A stretch of DNA of 64,000 nt from Candidatus Aenigmatarchaeota archaeon (GCA_041489155.1 JBGPQP010000003.1:1-64000), one strand, 5' to 3'; counted from the first letter of the stretch, positions 1 through 63,069 are shown. The notes: generated by a model from the letters alone, not told the origin. Made by a program: numbers and translations.

Positions 1-442
1 AGGAAAGGAGCTGTGGAGATTCATGACAGGCGGCAAGGTTTTCGGAGGCTCTGTGGTGTGGAATAACAGGCTGTTTTTCGGGTCCTATGACTGCCGCTTG
101 TATTCTCTTGACATGCAGGGCAGGGAAATATGGAGCTTCGCGACGTCCAACCTTTCCATGGTTTTTCTTCCGCCGCCGCATGACGCCTTCGAGCTGAAGG
201 TCAAAAAAAGCGCTGTCCCGGAGGACGCGGTTTCCGAGGAAAAATACAGAAAAAAAAGAGGCGAAGAAACGATTTCCCTGTCGGATTATCATGTGACTTC
301 CGAATATTCAACAACGTCAGAGTACAAACATAAAAGCGACTACGACACGAGTTTCGTGATGTTTGAAAACGTTTTCGAGGTTGAAAACATATGGATTTCG
401 GATTCGAAGGCTTTGAAGCCGAGCTTGAAGACTTCGAAGTGA
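1..442 (+). CDS. PQQ-type beta-propeller repeat protein, paralog 1 (5' truncated by window edge)
   Basis: Frame open from position 2 (GKELWRFMTGG...); last blade FFGSYDCRLYSLD..GREIWSF; C-terminal tail shared with the next two ORFs. Confidence 0.85.
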   Translation, partial: GKELWRFMTGGKVFGGSVVWNNRLFFGSYDCRLYSLDMQGREIWSFATSNLSMVFLPPPHDAFELKVKKSAVPEDAVSEEKYRKKRGEETISLSDYHVTSEYSTTSEYKHKSDYDTSFVMFENVFEVENIWISDSKALKPSLKTSK

Positions 443-55413: not shown

Positions 55414-55983
55414 ATGGTCGAGTTTCACATAAAGGTCGAAAATGTAGTCGCCTTTGCTGTTTTAGGCAAGAGAATCGTGCTCAACAAGCTCGTTGAAAAA
55501 ATGGGCAACACCGAATACGAGCCCGAACAGTTCCCGGGCCTCGTCTACAGGATAAAGGACCCGAGGGCGGCTGCGCTTATTTTCTCGTCAGGCAAGATAG
55601 TCTGCACCGGAGCGAAGAGCATAGCTATGGCAAAGGAAGCCATGAGGAAAATCGTGCAGGACATAAAGAAGACAGGCACCGCCATGCCGACGAAGTTCAA
55701 CATAAACATAGAGAACATAGTCGCGTCGACTAAAATCGACGTCAAGCCAAGGCTCATGCTCGAGGAAATCGCCATGTCGCTCGAGGAAGTGGAATACGAG
55801 CCCGAACAGTTCCCCGGCCTTGTTTACAGGATGAAGAGCCCGCGAACCGCTTTCCTGCTTTTCGGCTCGGGCAAGATAATCTGCACGGGCGGCCGCAGCC
55901 TGGAGGACATAAACACTGCACTGAACAACTTCAAGAAGCGGCTGGAAGGGATAGGCCTGAAAATCAAGCCGGCGAAAGACTGA
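55414..55983 (+). CDS. tbp: TATA-box binding protein
   Basis: Two repeats of ENxVA...EYEPEQFPGLVYR...SGKIxCTG. Confidence 0.97.
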   Translation: MVEFHIKVENVVAFAVLGKRIVLNKLVEKMGNTEYEPEQFPGLVYRIKDPRAAALIFSSGKIVCTGAKSIAMAKEAMRKIVQDIKKTGTAMPTKFNINIENIVASTKIDVKPRLMLEEIAMSLEEVEYEPEQFPGLVYRMKSPRTAFLLFGSGKIICTGGRSLEDINTALNNFKKRLEGIGLKIKPAKD

Positions 55984-57048: not shown

Positions 57049-57843
57049 ATGCCTGAGGTTTTTCAATACGGTTCTAATCTGAGCAAGGATCGCTTTACTA
57101 GTAGGATGTTGCAGGGTGAATATAGGCCCGTGAGTGATCTTGGCAGATATGATTTAAATGGGTGCGAAGTCGTATTTGATGTTCCCAGTCAAACCGTACG
57201 CGTAGCTGCTGACATGATACCTTCTCAGCCTTCTTCACGTGCTGTCGGAAGAGTTTGGGGCATAACAAAAAAACAATTTGAAACTCTCAAAGGATTCGAG
57301 GGTCCTCGTTATAGAGAGGAAAGAATACAGATACCCGGAGTTGGCAATGCAATAACGTTTGTTGGCACGGATGATGCCAGAAGAATTTTCAGAGCACAAC
57401 ATTCTGGCGAGTTGCCTACAGGAGAGTATCTTCATCACATCATAACCGGACTTAATGATCCTAACGTAAGAGCAGAAATAGAATATATAAGTCAAATTAT
57501 AGGAAAAGGAAGACCAAATCTCTCTGGAAGTAGAAGAGATGTCAGGCAAACCTTTGACAACCCTAGAGAATTTATGACATCTTCAATCGGAATCGACAGA
57601 AATTTAAGAGACGATTTGGGAGTAGGAGTAGGAGATTTTGTTCGGGTACATTATGATAGAAATTGGCTTAATCTTCAGGTAAGAAAGGCCCCAATAGAAT
57701 TAGTCGATTCTACTCTGTCACCCGTAACTCTTTCAAGAAAAGCTAGAGAATTTCTTGGCATGCGACCCGTTTCGCAAAGGGACGCGGAAAGCTTCAGAAC
57801 AATATATCCTGGATTATCCATCACCAGATTAGAAAATTTATAG
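57049..57843 (+). CDS. Gamma-glutamylcyclotransferase-like domain plus C-terminal double-psi-barrel-like domain (AT-rich)
   Basis: FQYGSNL, GRVW, LKGFEG..Y, P..EYL..I..G; C-terminal RDDLGVGVGDFVRV / SRKAREFLG. Confidence 0.7.
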   Translation: MPEVFQYGSNLSKDRFTSRMLQGEYRPVSDLGRYDLNGCEVVFDVPSQTVRVAADMIPSQPSSRAVGRVWGITKKQFETLKGFEGPRYREERIQIPGVGNAITFVGTDDARRIFRAQHSGELPTGEYLHHIITGLNDPNVRAEIEYISQIIGKGRPNLSGSRRDVRQTFDNPREFMTSSIGIDRNLRDDLGVGVGDFVRVHYDRNWLNLQVRKAPIELVDSTLSPVTLSRKAREFLGMRPVSQRDAESFRTIYPGLSITRLENL

Positions 57844-57892
57844 AACTGGTCTCTCAACCAAACTTTTTATGACCTCGTTCAATTCAATAACT

Positions 57893-59467
57893 ATGAGCTT
57901 CGTGAGCCATCCGATGATCAGGCCGAATGCGATAGAGTCGAGACTCTACCAGGAAGCGATAGTCGGCAGGGCGGCAGCGAACGACCTGCTCTGTGTGTTG
58001 CCAACGGGATTGGGCAAGACTCCTATAGCCATCGTTTTAGCCGTTCACCGCCTTGAGAAATTCCCGGGCTCTAAGGTACTGGTCATGGCGCCGACCAAGC
58101 CGCTGACCGAGCAACATCTGCATTCTTTCATGCGGGCGATAAATCTGCCGGATGAGGAGTTCGTCCTGGTCACAGGAAAGACAAAGCCTGGCAGCAGGCA
58201 GGAGCTTTACAGGAACGCCAGAATAATTTTTGCCACGCCGCAGACCATCGAGAACGATCTGGAAGGGGGAAGGATAAACCTGGAGGACTTCTCCCTCCTG
58301 GTCTTCGACGAGGCGCACCATTCGATAGGAGATTACGCTTACCCTTACATAGCTAAGGCGTATGCCGGGCAGGCGAAGAACCGCAGGATCCTCGGCCTGA
58401 CAGCATCCCCGGGCGGGACGAAGGCTAAGATAAAGGAGATCATGGACAACCTCGGCATCCGCGAGGTCGAGATACGGACGGAGAAAGATTTCGATGTGGA
58501 GCCGTGGGTGCAGGAGAAGCATGTGGAATGGGTCTACGTCAGGCTGCCGGACGCCTTCGTTGAACTGGGCAAAACGCTCAGAAAAGCCTATATGGACAGG
58601 CTGGAGAAGCTCAGGAAAATAGGCTTCAACAAGCCCGTCGGCATCATAAGCAAGCGTGACCTTCTGGCGCTGCAACAGAAGCTCATGGCCAGCCCCTCGC
58701 GCGACTACACCAAGTTCTGGGGCGTTTCGCTGGTCTCGCAGGCGATAAAGCTCGAGCACGCGCTCGGCCTGCTTGAGACGCAGGGCATAACATCGCTCTG
58801 GAACTACTTCAGGAAGCTGTCTTCAAGCAAGGCAAAATCGTCACGGAGCGTGCTGAAGGACAAGAACGTGATAAAGGCGATGAAGCTATCCGAAGCGCTG
58901 GAGGCCGAAGGCCGCAAGCATCCGAAGATGGCGAAGCTCAGCGAGCTCGTTAGCTTCCAGCTGCGCGAAAAACCCGCCTCGAAAATCATCCTGTTCGCGA
59001 ATTACAGGGAGATGGTCAGGGAGCTAGTCAAGACGCTGTCCAATGTTGAAGGCGCGAGGCCTGGCGAATTCATGGGACAGAAGGAAGGGATGACGCAGAA
59101 CGAACAGAAGCAGCGCATACAGGAGTTCAAGGACGGCATCTATAACATACTGGTAACCACATCAATCGGCGAGGAAGGAATTGACATACCGGAGATGGAG
59201 CTCGCGATTTTCTACGAGCCCGTCCCTAGCGAAATTCGTTCGATTCAGCGGCGCGGACGAGTGGGGCGAACGAAAGTCGGCAGGATAATCATACTCATGG
59301 CCAAGGGCACGAGGGACGAAGCGTATTACTGGACCGCGCAGAGAAAGGAAAGCATCATGAGGAAAACGCTGTACGAGATGAAGGAGGAATCACGATTCCC
59401 GGAGGTGCCGACGCGTCAAAGAAGAAAGATTGCCAAGAGAAATCAGAGTAGTTTATCGGATTTCTGA
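57893..59467 (+). CDS. hef: Hef/FANCM-like SF2 helicase without ERCC4 nuclease domain
   Basis: RLYQ, LPTGLGKT, DEAH, GLTASPG, HPK, EEGIDIP, QRRGRVGR. Confidence 0.88.
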   Translation: MSFVSHPMIRPNAIESRLYQEAIVGRAAANDLLCVLPTGLGKTPIAIVLAVHRLEKFPGSKVLVMAPTKPLTEQHLHSFMRAINLPDEEFVLVTGKTKPGSRQELYRNARIIFATPQTIENDLEGGRINLEDFSLLVFDEAHHSIGDYAYPYIAKAYAGQAKNRRILGLTASPGGTKAKIKEIMDNLGIREVEIRTEKDFDVEPWVQEKHVEWVYVRLPDAFVELGKTLRKAYMDRLEKLRKIGFNKPVGIISKRDLLALQQKLMASPSRDYTKFWGVSLVSQAIKLEHALGLLETQGITSLWNYFRKLSSSKAKSSRSVLKDKNVIKAMKLSEALEAEGRKHPKMAKLSELVSFQLREKPASKIILFANYREMVRELVKTLSNVEGARPGEFMGQKEGMTQNEQKQRIQEFKDGIYNILVTTSIGEEGIDIPEMELAIFYEPVPSEIRSIQRRGRVGRTKVGRIIILMAKGTRDEAYYWTAQRKESIMRKTLYEMKEESRFPEVPTRQRRKIAKRNQSSLSDF

Positions 59468-59479
59468 TCAGGTTAAATG

Positions 59480-60436
59480 TTATATTCGAATGTGGCGTAA
59501 TTCACCTCTCGTGTATAGTGTTCTCCGTAAACGAAACAAAGCCCTTTGCCTAAGCTGACTAATTCGTACAGGTGTGACATCATATTTCCAAGCAAGTTGT
59601 CTAGTTTTCCCTAAATCAATGTTATCAGTAAACTTGAAACTCACAACATCGCCATGTTTTCTGCCTTTTTCTACTGTTTTTATTATTCCAAATGATTCTA
59701 ATAGATGTTCTGGAACATCTGAAAGAGGACCATATTTAGATTCAACGTATTTTAAAATTTCAGACCTATCCACGGGTTCAGTAGTTAAATTGTTTCTATT
59801 AAAATCATAATATTTTTCAATTATTGAAAATTCTCTCTCGGGAAGTGAGGATAGAGCTGAGTTCAAAGCCATGCACAACCTTTCTTCAAAATCAATCTCA
59901 GATGATGTTTTTTTAGATAAAATTAAGTCTTTATACCACCACTGATCTTCTTCTGTGGGTACTGGCCATTTGTCCACCAAGTTTAAAATAATACCAGCCA
60001 GACATTTTCTCATATACAGATCGTAATTCTTATCTTTGCCCGATGTGTGTTTTCTCTGGTTACCTAAAAATTGTATAAACGCTTCCTGAATAATATCTTC
60101 CCTGTCCTCTTCTGTCGTATCCGACCTTTTTTTGTATTCCACACAATTGTCGAATATTCTCTTCATTATTTCCAAAACCTTACCGGTTTCCATGTTTTTT
60201 TCCAACTTTCCAATTCCATTAGTGTATCCTAAAATTTTCATTTCCTCTCTCGTGGTCAAACCAAGTTCTTTCCTAACATGGGAAGGATTGCTATCGAAAA
60301 AATGTTTATAAACATCACTATGTCCTGCATCGCTTATTTCATAGATATTAGGATTCCTTCGGTTTTTTGTACAAAATCCTAAGTAAAACTCTAAAAATTC
60401 ATCCCTCTTTCCCAAACATATTTCTGTATTTGCCAT
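59480..60436 (-). CDS. Sigma-70-like protein (regions 2 and 4), AT-rich
   Basis: REDIIQEAFI (r2.2-like); ALSSLPEREFSII..YY (r4.1-like); VTPVRISQLRQRALFRLR (r4.2-like HTH). Confidence 0.7.
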   Translation of the reverse strand: MANTEICLGKRDEFLEFYLGFCTKNRRNPNIYEISDAGHSDVYKHFFDSNPSHVRKELGLTTREEMKILGYTNGIGKLEKNMETGKVLEIMKRIFDNCVEYKKRSDTTEEDREDIIQEAFIQFLGNQRKHTSGKDKNYDLYMRKCLAGIILNLVDKWPVPTEEDQWWYKDLILSKKTSSEIDFEERLCMALNSALSSLPEREFSIIEKYYDFNRNNLTTEPVDRSEILKYVESKYGPLSDVPEHLLESFGIIKTVEKGRKHGDVVSFKFTDNIDLGKTRQLAWKYDVTPVRISQLRQRALFRLRRTLYTRGELRHIRI

Positions 60437-60548
60437 ATTTCCAATTCAAATTAAATTCTAAGATTTAAATAAGCTACTATCTTATAGTAGTTAATAATTA
60501 AAACACCACAAAAAGTTATTTTAAATCATGTAGCATAATAGTCTAATT

Positions 60549-61925
60549 ATGTATTCTCACGAAATACAGCGGCTTCTCGGGCACAAGAACATCGCCATTG
60601 GCGACAGGGTCCTCGTCCAGAAGGACGGCAAAAAGCACGAGGGCCTGCTCATGCCAAAGCCTTCCCACGGCGACGAGAGAACGGTTCTCATAAAGCTTGA
60701 CAGCGGCTACAACGTCGGCTTCGATATAACCGGCCTCGTGATTTCGAAGGCGCATTCGAAAGAGCCGAAAGACGTGAAAGAAGAGGCGAAATACGAATTC
60801 GGCAGGACGAACAAAGAGCTGCTTGAACTGAAGTTCGATGCGAACAAGCCTAAGGTCGCGCTAATCTCGACCGGCGGCACCATTGCTTCGCGGGTTGATT
60901 ACAGGACAGGAGGCGTCTACGCTGTCGAGAATCCCAAGGAGCTCCTGCACAACATACCCGAGCTTTCTCACATAGTTAATCTCGAGATGTTCAGCCCGAT
61001 TAAGAAGATGAGCGAGGATCTCGACCCTGAGGACTGGCAGCACATCGCCAGGGAGGTCGCTAAAGAGTTGAACGCCGGAAAAAAGGGTGTGATTGTAACG
61101 CACGGCACGGACACGCTGCATTACACTTCCGCTGCGTTATCATTTTTCCTTCAGAATCTCGGCAAACCCGTCGTCCTTGTAGGCGCGCAGAGGTCGAGCG
61201 ACCGGGGCTCGAGCGACGCCGGCCTGAACATCATCTGCGCGGCGCACGTCGCCGTGTCTGACATCGCCGAGGTCGGGACGTGCATGCACGGCAGCACGAA
61301 TGACGCATACTGCCATTTCATCCGCGGGACGAAGGTGCGCAAGATGCACACGACCAGGCGCGACGCCTTCCAGCCGATAAACGAGCCCGCGCTGGCGAGG
61401 GTCTTCGCTGATGGCAGGATCGATATAATCAACAAGAACTTCAGGAAAAGAGATGACAAGAAGAAGGTGGAGGTCGACGCAAAAATCGACCCGAACGTCG
61501 CGATACTCAAGGTCTATCCCGGCTCGCACTCGAATGTGATCGATTATCACATCAGGAACGGGTGTAAAGGCTTCGTCATCGAGGGGACCGGCATGGGCCA
61601 CGTGCCTACTGAAGTCTCGAAAAAGCCTTGGACCCTTGCGATAAAGAAGCACTCGGAAACCATCCCGTTTGTCATAACCTCCCAGACAATTTACGGCAGG
61701 GTAAACCCATACGTCTACACGAACCTGCGCAAGCTGTTCATCGATTCCGGAGCGATTCCTGGCGAGGACATGACCAGCGAAACTGCGTATGTCAAGCTCA
61801 TGTGGGTGCTCGGCAAGACAAAGAGTATGGAGAAGATACGCGAGATGATGCTTACGAACTACGTCGGTGAAATCACCAGCCGCACGGAAACCGACGCCTT
61901 TTCTGCAGAGGGATTGAATGAGTGA
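60549..61925 (+). CDS. gatD: Glu-tRNA(Gln) amidotransferase subunit D
   Basis: KLDSGYNVG, STGGTIASRVDY.TG, HGTDT, GAQRSSDR, RKMHTTRRDAF. Confidence 0.96.
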   Translation: MYSHEIQRLLGHKNIAIGDRVLVQKDGKKHEGLLMPKPSHGDERTVLIKLDSGYNVGFDITGLVISKAHSKEPKDVKEEAKYEFGRTNKELLELKFDANKPKVALISTGGTIASRVDYRTGGVYAVENPKELLHNIPELSHIVNLEMFSPIKKMSEDLDPEDWQHIAREVAKELNAGKKGVIVTHGTDTLHYTSAALSFFLQNLGKPVVLVGAQRSSDRGSSDAGLNIICAAHVAVSDIAEVGTCMHGSTNDAYCHFIRGTKVRKMHTTRRDAFQPINEPALARVFADGRIDIINKNFRKRDDKKKVEVDAKIDPNVAILKVYPGSHSNVIDYHIRNGCKGFVIEGTGMGHVPTEVSKKPWTLAIKKHSETIPFVITSQTIYGRVNPYVYTNLRKLFIDSGAIPGEDMTSETAYVKLMWVLGKTKSMEKIREMMLTNYVGEITSRTETDAFSAEGLNE

Positions 61926-63069
61926 GATTTTAACTAAAAAGTTGCACAAAAATTCAGATAGAAAATTTTCGCTTATTTTAGCTAAACCCAAAAATAAGGC
62001 AGACGTTCCTAAAAATTTGTGGGAAAAATCAAAAAGGATAGTGGTTAATCGATTTCGTGAAGAATATGTACCTCTTTATCTCTTAAATTCATATAAGATT
62101 AAGATAGATAAGTTGGTTGTGAACAACACATACGGAAGGCCTATTAAATTTGTTACGGAATTAACAGAGGATTTCGCAAAAATAATAGGTGCTATTTGTT
62201 CGGATGGCCATATAACAACTAAATCAAAAGCTGATTATATCATACAGTTGGTCGATTCCGACAAAACAGCAGTCATAGCTTTTCAGAAATGGATTGAAAA
62301 TATATTTGGTAGAAAGTATACTGTCAATAAGGACTATACATCGAACTCGTGGAGAATAGATATAAACAACAAGATCATAGGCCGTTACTTGGTTGATGTT
62401 ATAGGGCTCCCTACCAATAAAAAATCTGATACTGTAAGATCACCAAAAGTTATAATGAGAAGTACTTCAGATATTCAAAAGGCATTTTGCGTTGGAGCTT
62501 TAACTTTCGATGGAGGAATAGACATAAGCGGTAATATAGAATTTTTAACACGTAGCAAACAATTCTATTTGGATATTGTTAGAATCCTGAAAAGATTGAA
62601 TATCGATGCGTACTACAAAAAAACAAGCGATAAAAACGGATTTTGGAGGTTCCATTTGTGCAGATCATCCCCAGAATATAAAAAATGGTTGCAACTTTTT
62701 GAAAAGGGAACAGAGAAATGGGAAAAAATAAAAGAAAACGTAAATGGTTTCAAAAAGATACCAACTTCGGAGAACGAAGTTCTTGAAACATTCAGCAGAG
62801 TATTCCCCTCTAAAAACAGAAGCTTTGTAAACATCTCTGATTTTTTTAATTGCCTAAAGAAAGCTGGAAATTGTAATATAGAGGAACTAACGAAGAAATT
62901 AAATATAGATAAAACCACAACAAATAAATATAGAAAAGTTCTGAAAGATTGCAATATAATACGCGAAGAACACATTGAGGGCAAGAAATATAAAATAGAG
63001 ATATGCTTCAATAAAAATATACACGAATGGAGAATACCAAAAAGGTCTTATAATGGAATTGGATTATAA
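61918..63069 (+). mobile_element. Free-standing two-motif LAGLIDADG homing-endonuclease-like gene with C-terminal HTH
   Basis: AKIIGAICSDG and AFCVGALTFDGG; strongly AT-rich; no intein splice termini; overlaps gatD stop and gatE start. Confidence 0.82.

Follow-up and report, generated by a model that had tools for sequence, protein, structure and literature searches.

The window analysed here, a stretch of 64,000 nucleotides from a Candidatus Aenigmatarchaeota archaeon, contains a short AT-rich islet lodged between two host core genes. The islet holds one gene, on the minus strand, whose product (P0001) resembles sigma factors of the sigma-70 family. The features of the locus are listed below, with coordinates given in the window and residues in P0001.

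57869..59467, plus strand: Hef-like DEAD/Helicase_C helicase, host core gene forming the left flank (GC3 0.73)
59468..60548: AT-rich islet of 1.08 kb filling the slot from the helicase stop to the gatD start (GC 0.30-0.36 versus 0.53-0.57 in the flanks)
59480..60436, minus strand: sigma-70-family-like ORF P0001, 318 aa, ATG start (TIGR02937, hhalign)
59507..59608, minus strand: region 4.2 helix-turn-helix, residues 277-310, basic, pI 12 (profiles; VIA match to 3hug_A)
59609..59794, minus strand: insertion in sigma4, residues 215-276, modelled as two helices and a beta-hairpin (gap relative to 26 other sigma domains)
59795..59896, minus strand: region 4.1 helices, residues 181-214, LNSALSSLPEREFSIIEKYYDF (Sigma70_r4 positions 1-18; hhalign; AF2 pLDDT 86-94)
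59897..59956, minus strand: sigma2-sigma4 linker, residues 161-180 (20 aa), no sigma3 (17% identity to P0002)
59957..60181, minus strand: sigma domain 2 (r2.1-r2.4), residues 86-160, with DREDIIQEA and YDLYMRKCLAGIILNLV (hhalign 92-96%; VIA match to 3ugo_A; 42% identical to P0002)
60182..60436, minus strand: N-terminal domain, residues 1-85, family-specific (44% identical to P0002; AF2 pLDDT 36-63)
60463..60469, minus strand: TTTAAAT, TATA-like box with its centre 30 nt upstream of the ATG
60474..60490: perfect palindrome CTACTAT-N3-ATAGTAG (7+3+7), just upstream of the TATA-like box, with one site in the window
60549..61925, plus strand: gatD, host core gene forming the right flank (GC3 0.74)

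The host of this gene is clearly archaeal. Its genome (1.13 Mb in 39 contigs, 89.65% complete) encodes TBP, TFB, Kae1, aIF-2B, gatD and gatE, and a single large RNA polymerase subunit, of the archaeal Rpb1 type. No bacterial core RNA polymerase was found in this 89.65% complete assembly. The preliminary description, made from the sequence alone, took the host for an archaeon that initiates with TBP/TFB and placed tbp about 3.5 kb from the sigma-like ORF; both statements agree with what we found, tbp lying at 55414-55983.

A remote homolog of the sigma-70 family

The open frame at 59480-60436, also proposed there, is a real one: the chance of so long a frame at 34% GC is 7.5e-13, and the longest open frame in 1000 shuffles reached 185 codons. 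Its product resembles sigma factors in every profile library we searched, always below the curated threshold. TIGR02937, the NCBIfam model of the sigma70-ECF superfamily, aligns profile positions 23-164 of 165 with residues 103-306 at 37.5 bits (E 1.7e-9; cut-off 42.9), and P0001 scores 38 bits in a genome-wide search with the same model. Pfam Sigma70_r4 scores 19.1 bits with the full-length protein and 22.1 bits, split over two stretches, with its C-terminal 137 aa, both short of the cut-off of 24.1. Sigma70_r2 gives 14.8 bits against a cut-off of 24, and P0001 is this model's sole match in the genome. TIGR02985 also aligns across r2 to r4, the PHROG sigma factor families 351 and 1740 match weakly (E 6.6e-5 and 4.4e-4), and the FliA_WhiG and PRK06986 models of NCBIfam match in part, at 25 bits versus cut-offs of 190-201.

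Profile-profile comparison goes further. A profile built from P0001 and its single relative, P0002 (see below), was compared by hhalign with 30 sigma domains of the same phylum and scored 96.4% (E 1.4e-9) in one alignment over residues 106-305, passing through r2, r4.1, a gap and r4.2. Against ten bacterial sigma domains, all from one bacterial MAG (G371, flagged as unpublished), the same profile scored 92-93%, over r2 alone or from r2 through r4.1; region 2 by itself (residues 107-154) reached 92.2% against bacterial sigma domains. A profile search of the PDB returned 12 sequences at E <=10, 11 of them sigma factors, all weak (best E 0.074), and those language-model neighbours in the Atlas that were listed with families were all sigma clusters (score 0.92-0.93), several of them mostly viral.

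Judged by these profiles and by the structural model presented below, P0001 is distantly homologous to the sigma-70 family, has an ECF-like layout and reaches no curated threshold for membership. Its descent from this family is supported by profile-profile comparison, predicted fold and language-model neighbours. The motifs resembling r2.2, r2.3/2.4, r4.1 and r4.2 that were originally read from the sequence are all present in the order given, and profile methods map them to r2.1-2.4, r4.1 and r4.2.

Could P0001 be a generic helix-turn-helix regulator that resembles a sigma factor by chance? The Sigma70_r4 match, the sole one reported by Pfam, is sub-threshold, P0002 has no Pfam sigma match at all, and our control found sub-threshold TIGR02937 matches in model archaea too. 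We nevertheless hold this to be very improbable indeed. Sigma domain 2 is matched, and not just a helix-turn-helix: region 2 scores 92% by itself in profile-profile comparison, one alignment covers r2 to r4.2 in order, Sigma70_r2 matches P0001 and nothing else genome-wide, and sigma2 structures are matched by VIA.

Domain architecture and predicted fold

An AF2 model of P0001 was computed from an alignment of 28 sequences (P0001, P0002 and 26 of the 30 phylum sigma domains), and has a mean pLDDT of 73.3; without an alignment the pLDDT was 43 and the model unusable. Confidence is low in the N-domain (36-63) and higher in sigma2 (74-89), r4.1 (86-94) and r4.2 (90-95). When the model was compared with 48,161 chains using VIA-align, the top match was the sigma4 domain of Mycobacterium tuberculosis SigL (3hug_A, Z 8.7, rmsd 1.5, 77 of 80 residues), which covers 175..314 of the model, the insert being looped out. 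Domain 2 of sigmaA (3ugo_A) matches the range 87..161 over 64 residues (Z 6.2, rmsd 2.3), and sigma factors form the majority of the top 50 rows. Foldseek rows, too, are nearly all sigma factors, weakly matched (best E 0.057 in the PDB and 0.037 in BFVD). The structure check proposed at the outset recovers matches to sigma2 and sigma4 structures; since the AF2 alignment included sigma domains, these matches depend in part on the sequence comparison. The short linker between sigma2 and sigma4 and the lack of a sigma3 domain give the protein its predicted ECF-like layout.

Region 4 of P0001 really is split, according to both alignment and model: about 60 residues separate r4.1 from the helix-turn-helix. 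An insertion at this place had been noted from the outset with a size of about 50 aa; its presence stands, and its extent is nearer 60 (about residues 215-276). The insert, which has no Pfam match, is predicted to form helices at 224-235 and 243-248 and two strands at 251-256 and 264-269 that make a hairpin (pLDDT 82-93, in a part that only two sequences of the alignment cover). An alignment with RpoD offered another parse, in which KHGDVVSFKF would be the true r4.1, sigma4 would be whole and the LPERE... segment would be a duplicate. We rejected it because residues 251-269 form the modelled beta-hairpin and because in the VIA alignment the four sigma4 helices fall on 178-209 and 277-309. As for the N-terminus, the likeness to homing-endonuclease-associated repeats that had been suggested was not recovered: residues 1-86 had no Pfam match at E <=10 and no usable Atlas match, in searches that are weak ones.

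A family of two proteins

An exhaustive phmmer search of 1.84 billion representative proteins returned two: P0001 itself and P0002, a protein of 314 aa that is 34% identical to it and aligns end to end (E 1.2e-43). P0002 is encoded on a contig of 177,536 bases and is annotated as a sigma24-family protein in one source (JGI). It has the same N-domain and the same sigma4 insert and, independently of P0001, matches TIGR02937 at 31.6 bits (E 1.1e-7), below the cut-off of 42.9. Identity between the two is highest in the N-domain (44%) and sigma2 (42%), and falls to 29% in the insert, 26% in r4.2, 24% in r4.1 and 17% in the linker. That so complete an architecture persists at 34% identity speaks, with the long open frame, for a maintained gene. 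The r2.2 motif D-I-[IV]-Q-[EN] is common to both, and in the AF2 alignment of 28 sigma sequences no column but that of D114 is nearly invariant. The tryptophan pair found in r2.3 of primary-type sigmas is replaced by K-C in P0001 (MAFFT alignment).

Further relatives were sought widely. A word-indexed set of 5.8 billion proteins held none beyond P0001 and P0002, and metagenome contigs, searched with the family profile and with P0002, held none either. Searches of 2.9 million viral contigs and, by tblastn, of 50,697 phage records and of plasmid records gave no relative. Among genome contigs the sole match was a SigH-like sigma factor of Actinomycetota (residues 52-154, 26%). Closer to the host, a search of the 40 nearest genomes gave, beyond the genome itself, one match at chance level (G010, E 0.076, 11.3 bits), and the family profile found six other matches among the 371 genomes of the phylum, weak and partial (E 0.001-0.007) and about as many as expected by chance. 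The idea of a bacterial or phage sigma holds in part: profiles and predicted fold favour descent from the sigma-70 family, while viral contigs, phage records and plasmid records yielded no relative.

An AT-rich islet in a variable slot

The sigma-like ORF has a GC3 of 0.295, compared with 0.726 for the helicase, 0.741 for gatD and 0.721 for TBP. Helicase and gatD are neighbours in all four same-genus genomes as well, and what lies between them differs. In three of these genomes (G002, G003 and G004) the slot encodes a TPR protein; the three proteins are homologous to one another and have a twin-arginine-like N-terminus, and tblastn found no copy of this TPR gene in the sigma-carrying genome. 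The fourth (G001) has an 83-aa Cys-rich, zinc-ribbon-like ORF. The sigma-like gene is dispensable within the genus. No integrase, phage or other mobile-element gene lies beside the islet and no provirus was detectable; flanking direct or inverted repeats amount to short, imperfect pairs. The islet consists of one gene, with no anti-sigma or partner gene beside the ORF.

Since GC falls steeply at both gene boundaries, one may ask whether bacterial or phage DNA was joined to an archaeal contig during assembly or binning. This is next to impossible. In each of three samples, X2, X3 and X1 (which may be the source), Logan contigs bridge both junctions with 0-1 differences; among them, X2 contigs span 58900-59675 and 59895-61100 and X3 contigs span 59354-59663 and 60378-60643. 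At least two additional samples have contigs with the identical sequence. The flanks, moreover, are syntenic with the four same-genus genomes. A chimeric islet, named beforehand as what would overturn the observation, is not what the junctions reveal: the islet is real and the sigma-like gene is truly linked to the archaeal chromosome.

AT-rich islets are a general feature of this genome, since it contains 100 segments with GC below 0.38 (400-nt windows), amounting to 87 kb of 1.13 Mb, many of them at contig ends. The accessory gene pool is markedly AT-richer than the core (genome GC 0.493).

Two further single-gene islets lie close by. A plus-strand ORF with LAGLIDADG_3 and winged-helix domains (61918-63069, GC3 0.305) sits between gatD and gatE and overlaps the former by 8 nt and the latter by 17 nt. 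In the genomes G002 and G003 the next long ORF comes directly after gatD and overlaps it by 8 nt. The other islet (57049-57843, plus strand) encodes 264 aa, with GC 0.38-0.45, GC3 0.302 and host-like codon positions 1 and 2; it has weak matches to GGACT (E 0.0034) and CDC48_N (E 0.0035). We also observed that G004 has three gatD matches, one split in two frames (C2:296324-297698) and two full ones near contig starts (C3:1128-2501 and C4:1164-2537), which could be a strain mixture or a duplication in the assembly. Elsewhere in the window, the plus-strand segment 6676-6743 matches the Rfam tRNA model just at gathering score (29.7 versus 29 bits). ARAGORN does not report it, and the match could be false or reflect an odd or intron-bearing tRNA.

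Upstream region

An archaeal-style TATA box had been reported upstream of the gene, and TTTAAAT is indeed found at 60463-60469. Its position is consistent with a promoter, and if TTTAAAT acts as a TATA box, the 30-nt spacing to the ATG would imply a near-leaderless transcript. The adjacent palindrome is also present as reported, and does not exceed chance: a perfect inverted repeat of at least 7 bp with a spacer of at most 6 nt occurred in 1075 of 5000 shuffles (21.5%) of the 112-nt spacer, whose GC content is 20%. Genome-wide, the perfect palindrome occurs once, and 4 sites have at most 2 mismatches, compared with 0-9 in 20 shuffles. We accordingly rejected the palindrome as operator of a regulon, its 4 genomic sites being within the shuffle range.

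Sigma-like genes in related archaea and likeness to known systems

The preliminary description presented a sigma-like protein in an archaeon as a surprise, which was overstated: a sigma-like gene in a DPANN archaeon is a known phenomenon and not very unusual. The TIGR02937 cut-off is passed in 64 of the 371 genomes of the phylum, and 114 of 371 have a match at E <=1e-6; among the four same-genus genomes, none passes the cut-off. Sigma-70 genes (fam00359) in DPANN genomes were described by Castelle et al. 2021 (PMC8204110), whose text on these genes excludes mis-binning, reports that anti-sigma factors were not found and calls the mechanism unclear. A 2025 paper (PMC12647753) describes, in its account of these elements, rpoS-like genes on DPANN viruses or prophages. 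The phylum genes are far from P0001 in sequence: phmmer with P0001 matched none of 209 ORFs from 30 phylum sigma loci, and the two-member profile matched one (E 6e-4).

Several of these phylum matches deserve a remark of their own. Some genomes have two or three sigma matches side by side (G029:C20:14261-20852; G329:C76:3-2258; G256:C17:962-2467; G168:C6:46850-48160), and some adjacent matches lie in very long open frames (767 aa in G029, 699 aa in G328 and 842 aa in G024). Many keep primary-sigma motifs nearly intact, such as DLIQEGN.GL and FSTYATWWIRQA.

P0001 shares features with several known groups without fitting any of them. Like the fam00359 genes as presented in PMC8204110, it is a bacterial-type sigma gene in a small TBP/TFB genome without a nearby anti-sigma gene; compared with genes of that type it is far more diverged, falling below all cut-offs. 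Unlike other DPANN sigmas, P0001 has an N-domain, a folded sigma4 insert and a single known relative. ECF (group 4) sigmas have the same succession of sigma2, a 20-aa linker in P0001, and sigma4, with no sigma3, and ECF structures are its best matches: SigL (3hug, 6dv9), SigH (6jcx) and region 4 of E. coli sigmaE (2h27), with Z of 8.7, 8.3 and 6.7. ECF sigmas usually come with a co-encoded anti-sigma factor. P0001, in contrast, has no neighbouring anti-sigma gene and belongs to a genome without bacterial core polymerase; it also differs from ECF sigmas in its 85-aa N-domain, the 60-aa insert between r4.1 and the helix-turn-helix, and its sub-cut-off scores.

Sigma-28 factors of the FliA/WhiG type (1rp3, 9wsf, 6pmi) are its best PDB sequence matches, on r4.1 (LPERE) and r4.2, although these matches are partial and weak and P0001 lacks sigma3. 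Phage ECF-like sigmas are near in another sense, as the nearest Atlas clusters are 52-81% viral and the BFVD models matched include phage sigma factors; P0001, however, has neither a viral or phage sequence relative nor phage genes beside it. The rpoS-like genes of DPANN viruses, as PMC12647753 describes them, likewise tie a sigma gene to DPANN mobile DNA (a likeness in setting), whereas the P0001 gene has no detectable provirus around it. What is particular to P0001 is its degree of divergence, its two added modules and its clear hot-spot setting.

Possible role of P0001

Homology and architecture of P0001 are demonstrated at the level of profiles and models; what might such a protein do in an archaeal cell? 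The preliminary description proposed a repurposed sigma that might serve as a DNA-binding regulator, RNAP modulator or effector, a proposal that stays inferential. The role we regard as most likely, with about even confidence, is that of a putative accessory, sequence-specific DNA-binding transcription regulator. On this reading the gene was acquired horizontally, is accessory and dispensable, occupies a variable slot in an archaeon of about 1.1 Mb and would be expressed from its own TATA-type promoter; the basic r4.2 helix-turn-helix would bind DNA, and the well-conserved N-domain and sigma2 module would hold a conserved protein partner. P0001 would not replace TBP and TFB, with which, together with one archaeal RNA polymerase, the host would otherwise initiate transcription. 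It speaks against the regulator reading that the palindrome is within chance and comes without a regulon, which leaves the protein with no DNA target. That sigma2 is better kept than sigma4 is, in addition, a trait of core-binding sigmas, and judging from these sequences a contact with RNA polymerase would fit no worse than a plain regulator.

Such a contact is the essence of another proposal: P0001 might be a putative sigma-type factor that binds the archaeal RNA polymerase and modulates or redirects initiation alongside or against TFB/TFE. Sigma2 and the N-domain would sit on the clamp coiled-coil of RpoA', a homolog of the clamp helices found in bacterial beta', and sigma4 would read a promoter element. 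In bacteria, r2.2 contacts the beta' coiled-coil. That both family members retain D-I-[IV]-Q-[EN] in r2.2 with a nearly invariant D114, and that the N-domain and sigma2 are the best-kept parts, would suit this role; the 64 phylum genomes with a match above cut-off suggest some use for sigma factors in such cells. We still find it rather unlikely: in the MAFFT alignment P0001 has K-C in place of the r2.3 tryptophan pair, the single-gene islet has no anti-sigma or partner gene, and the queries used recovered no copy of the gene from the four same-genus genomes. A sigma-like gene that occupies a replaceable slot and was not recovered from same-genus genomes is not core machinery. A more specific form of the proposal strikes us as quite improbable, namely that N-domain and sigma2 bind the clamp coiled-coil of the Pol II-like archaeal enzyme and the split sigma4 reads DNA as part of a putative sigma-type promoter-specificity factor, the insert replacing the contact that bacterial sigmas make with the flap.

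P0001 might also have no host role at all, the islet being passenger DNA that dropped in recently, intact, from an AT-rich mobile-element or foreign pool and is perhaps nearing loss. The GC3 of 0.295 in a host with 0.72-0.74 points that way, as do the similarly low GC3 of the two nearby single-gene islets (0.305 for the LAGLIDADG ORF, 0.302 for the ORF at 57049-57843), the 87 kb of low-GC segments across the genome and the variation of slot content between species of the genus. However, the frame is intact and has a well-placed TATA box of its own, the identical sequence recurs in contigs of two or more other samples, neither flanking repeats nor an integrase or other mobile-element genes were seen, and the searches gave no phage, plasmid or viral relative. 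On balance this reading is doubtful, and we retain the accessory regulator as the preferred one.

PMC8204110 raises the question of what role sigma-like proteins play in archaea that have no bacterial polymerase, and the case of P0001 leaves the overall picture unchanged by itself. It does define a two-member family marked by an N-domain and a folded insert inside sigma4, in which sigma2 is better kept than the DNA-reading part. The locus is a clean, junction-verified example of a sigma-like gene in an archaeon, and it indicates that such genes can be strain-level, foreign-looking inserts and not core factors.
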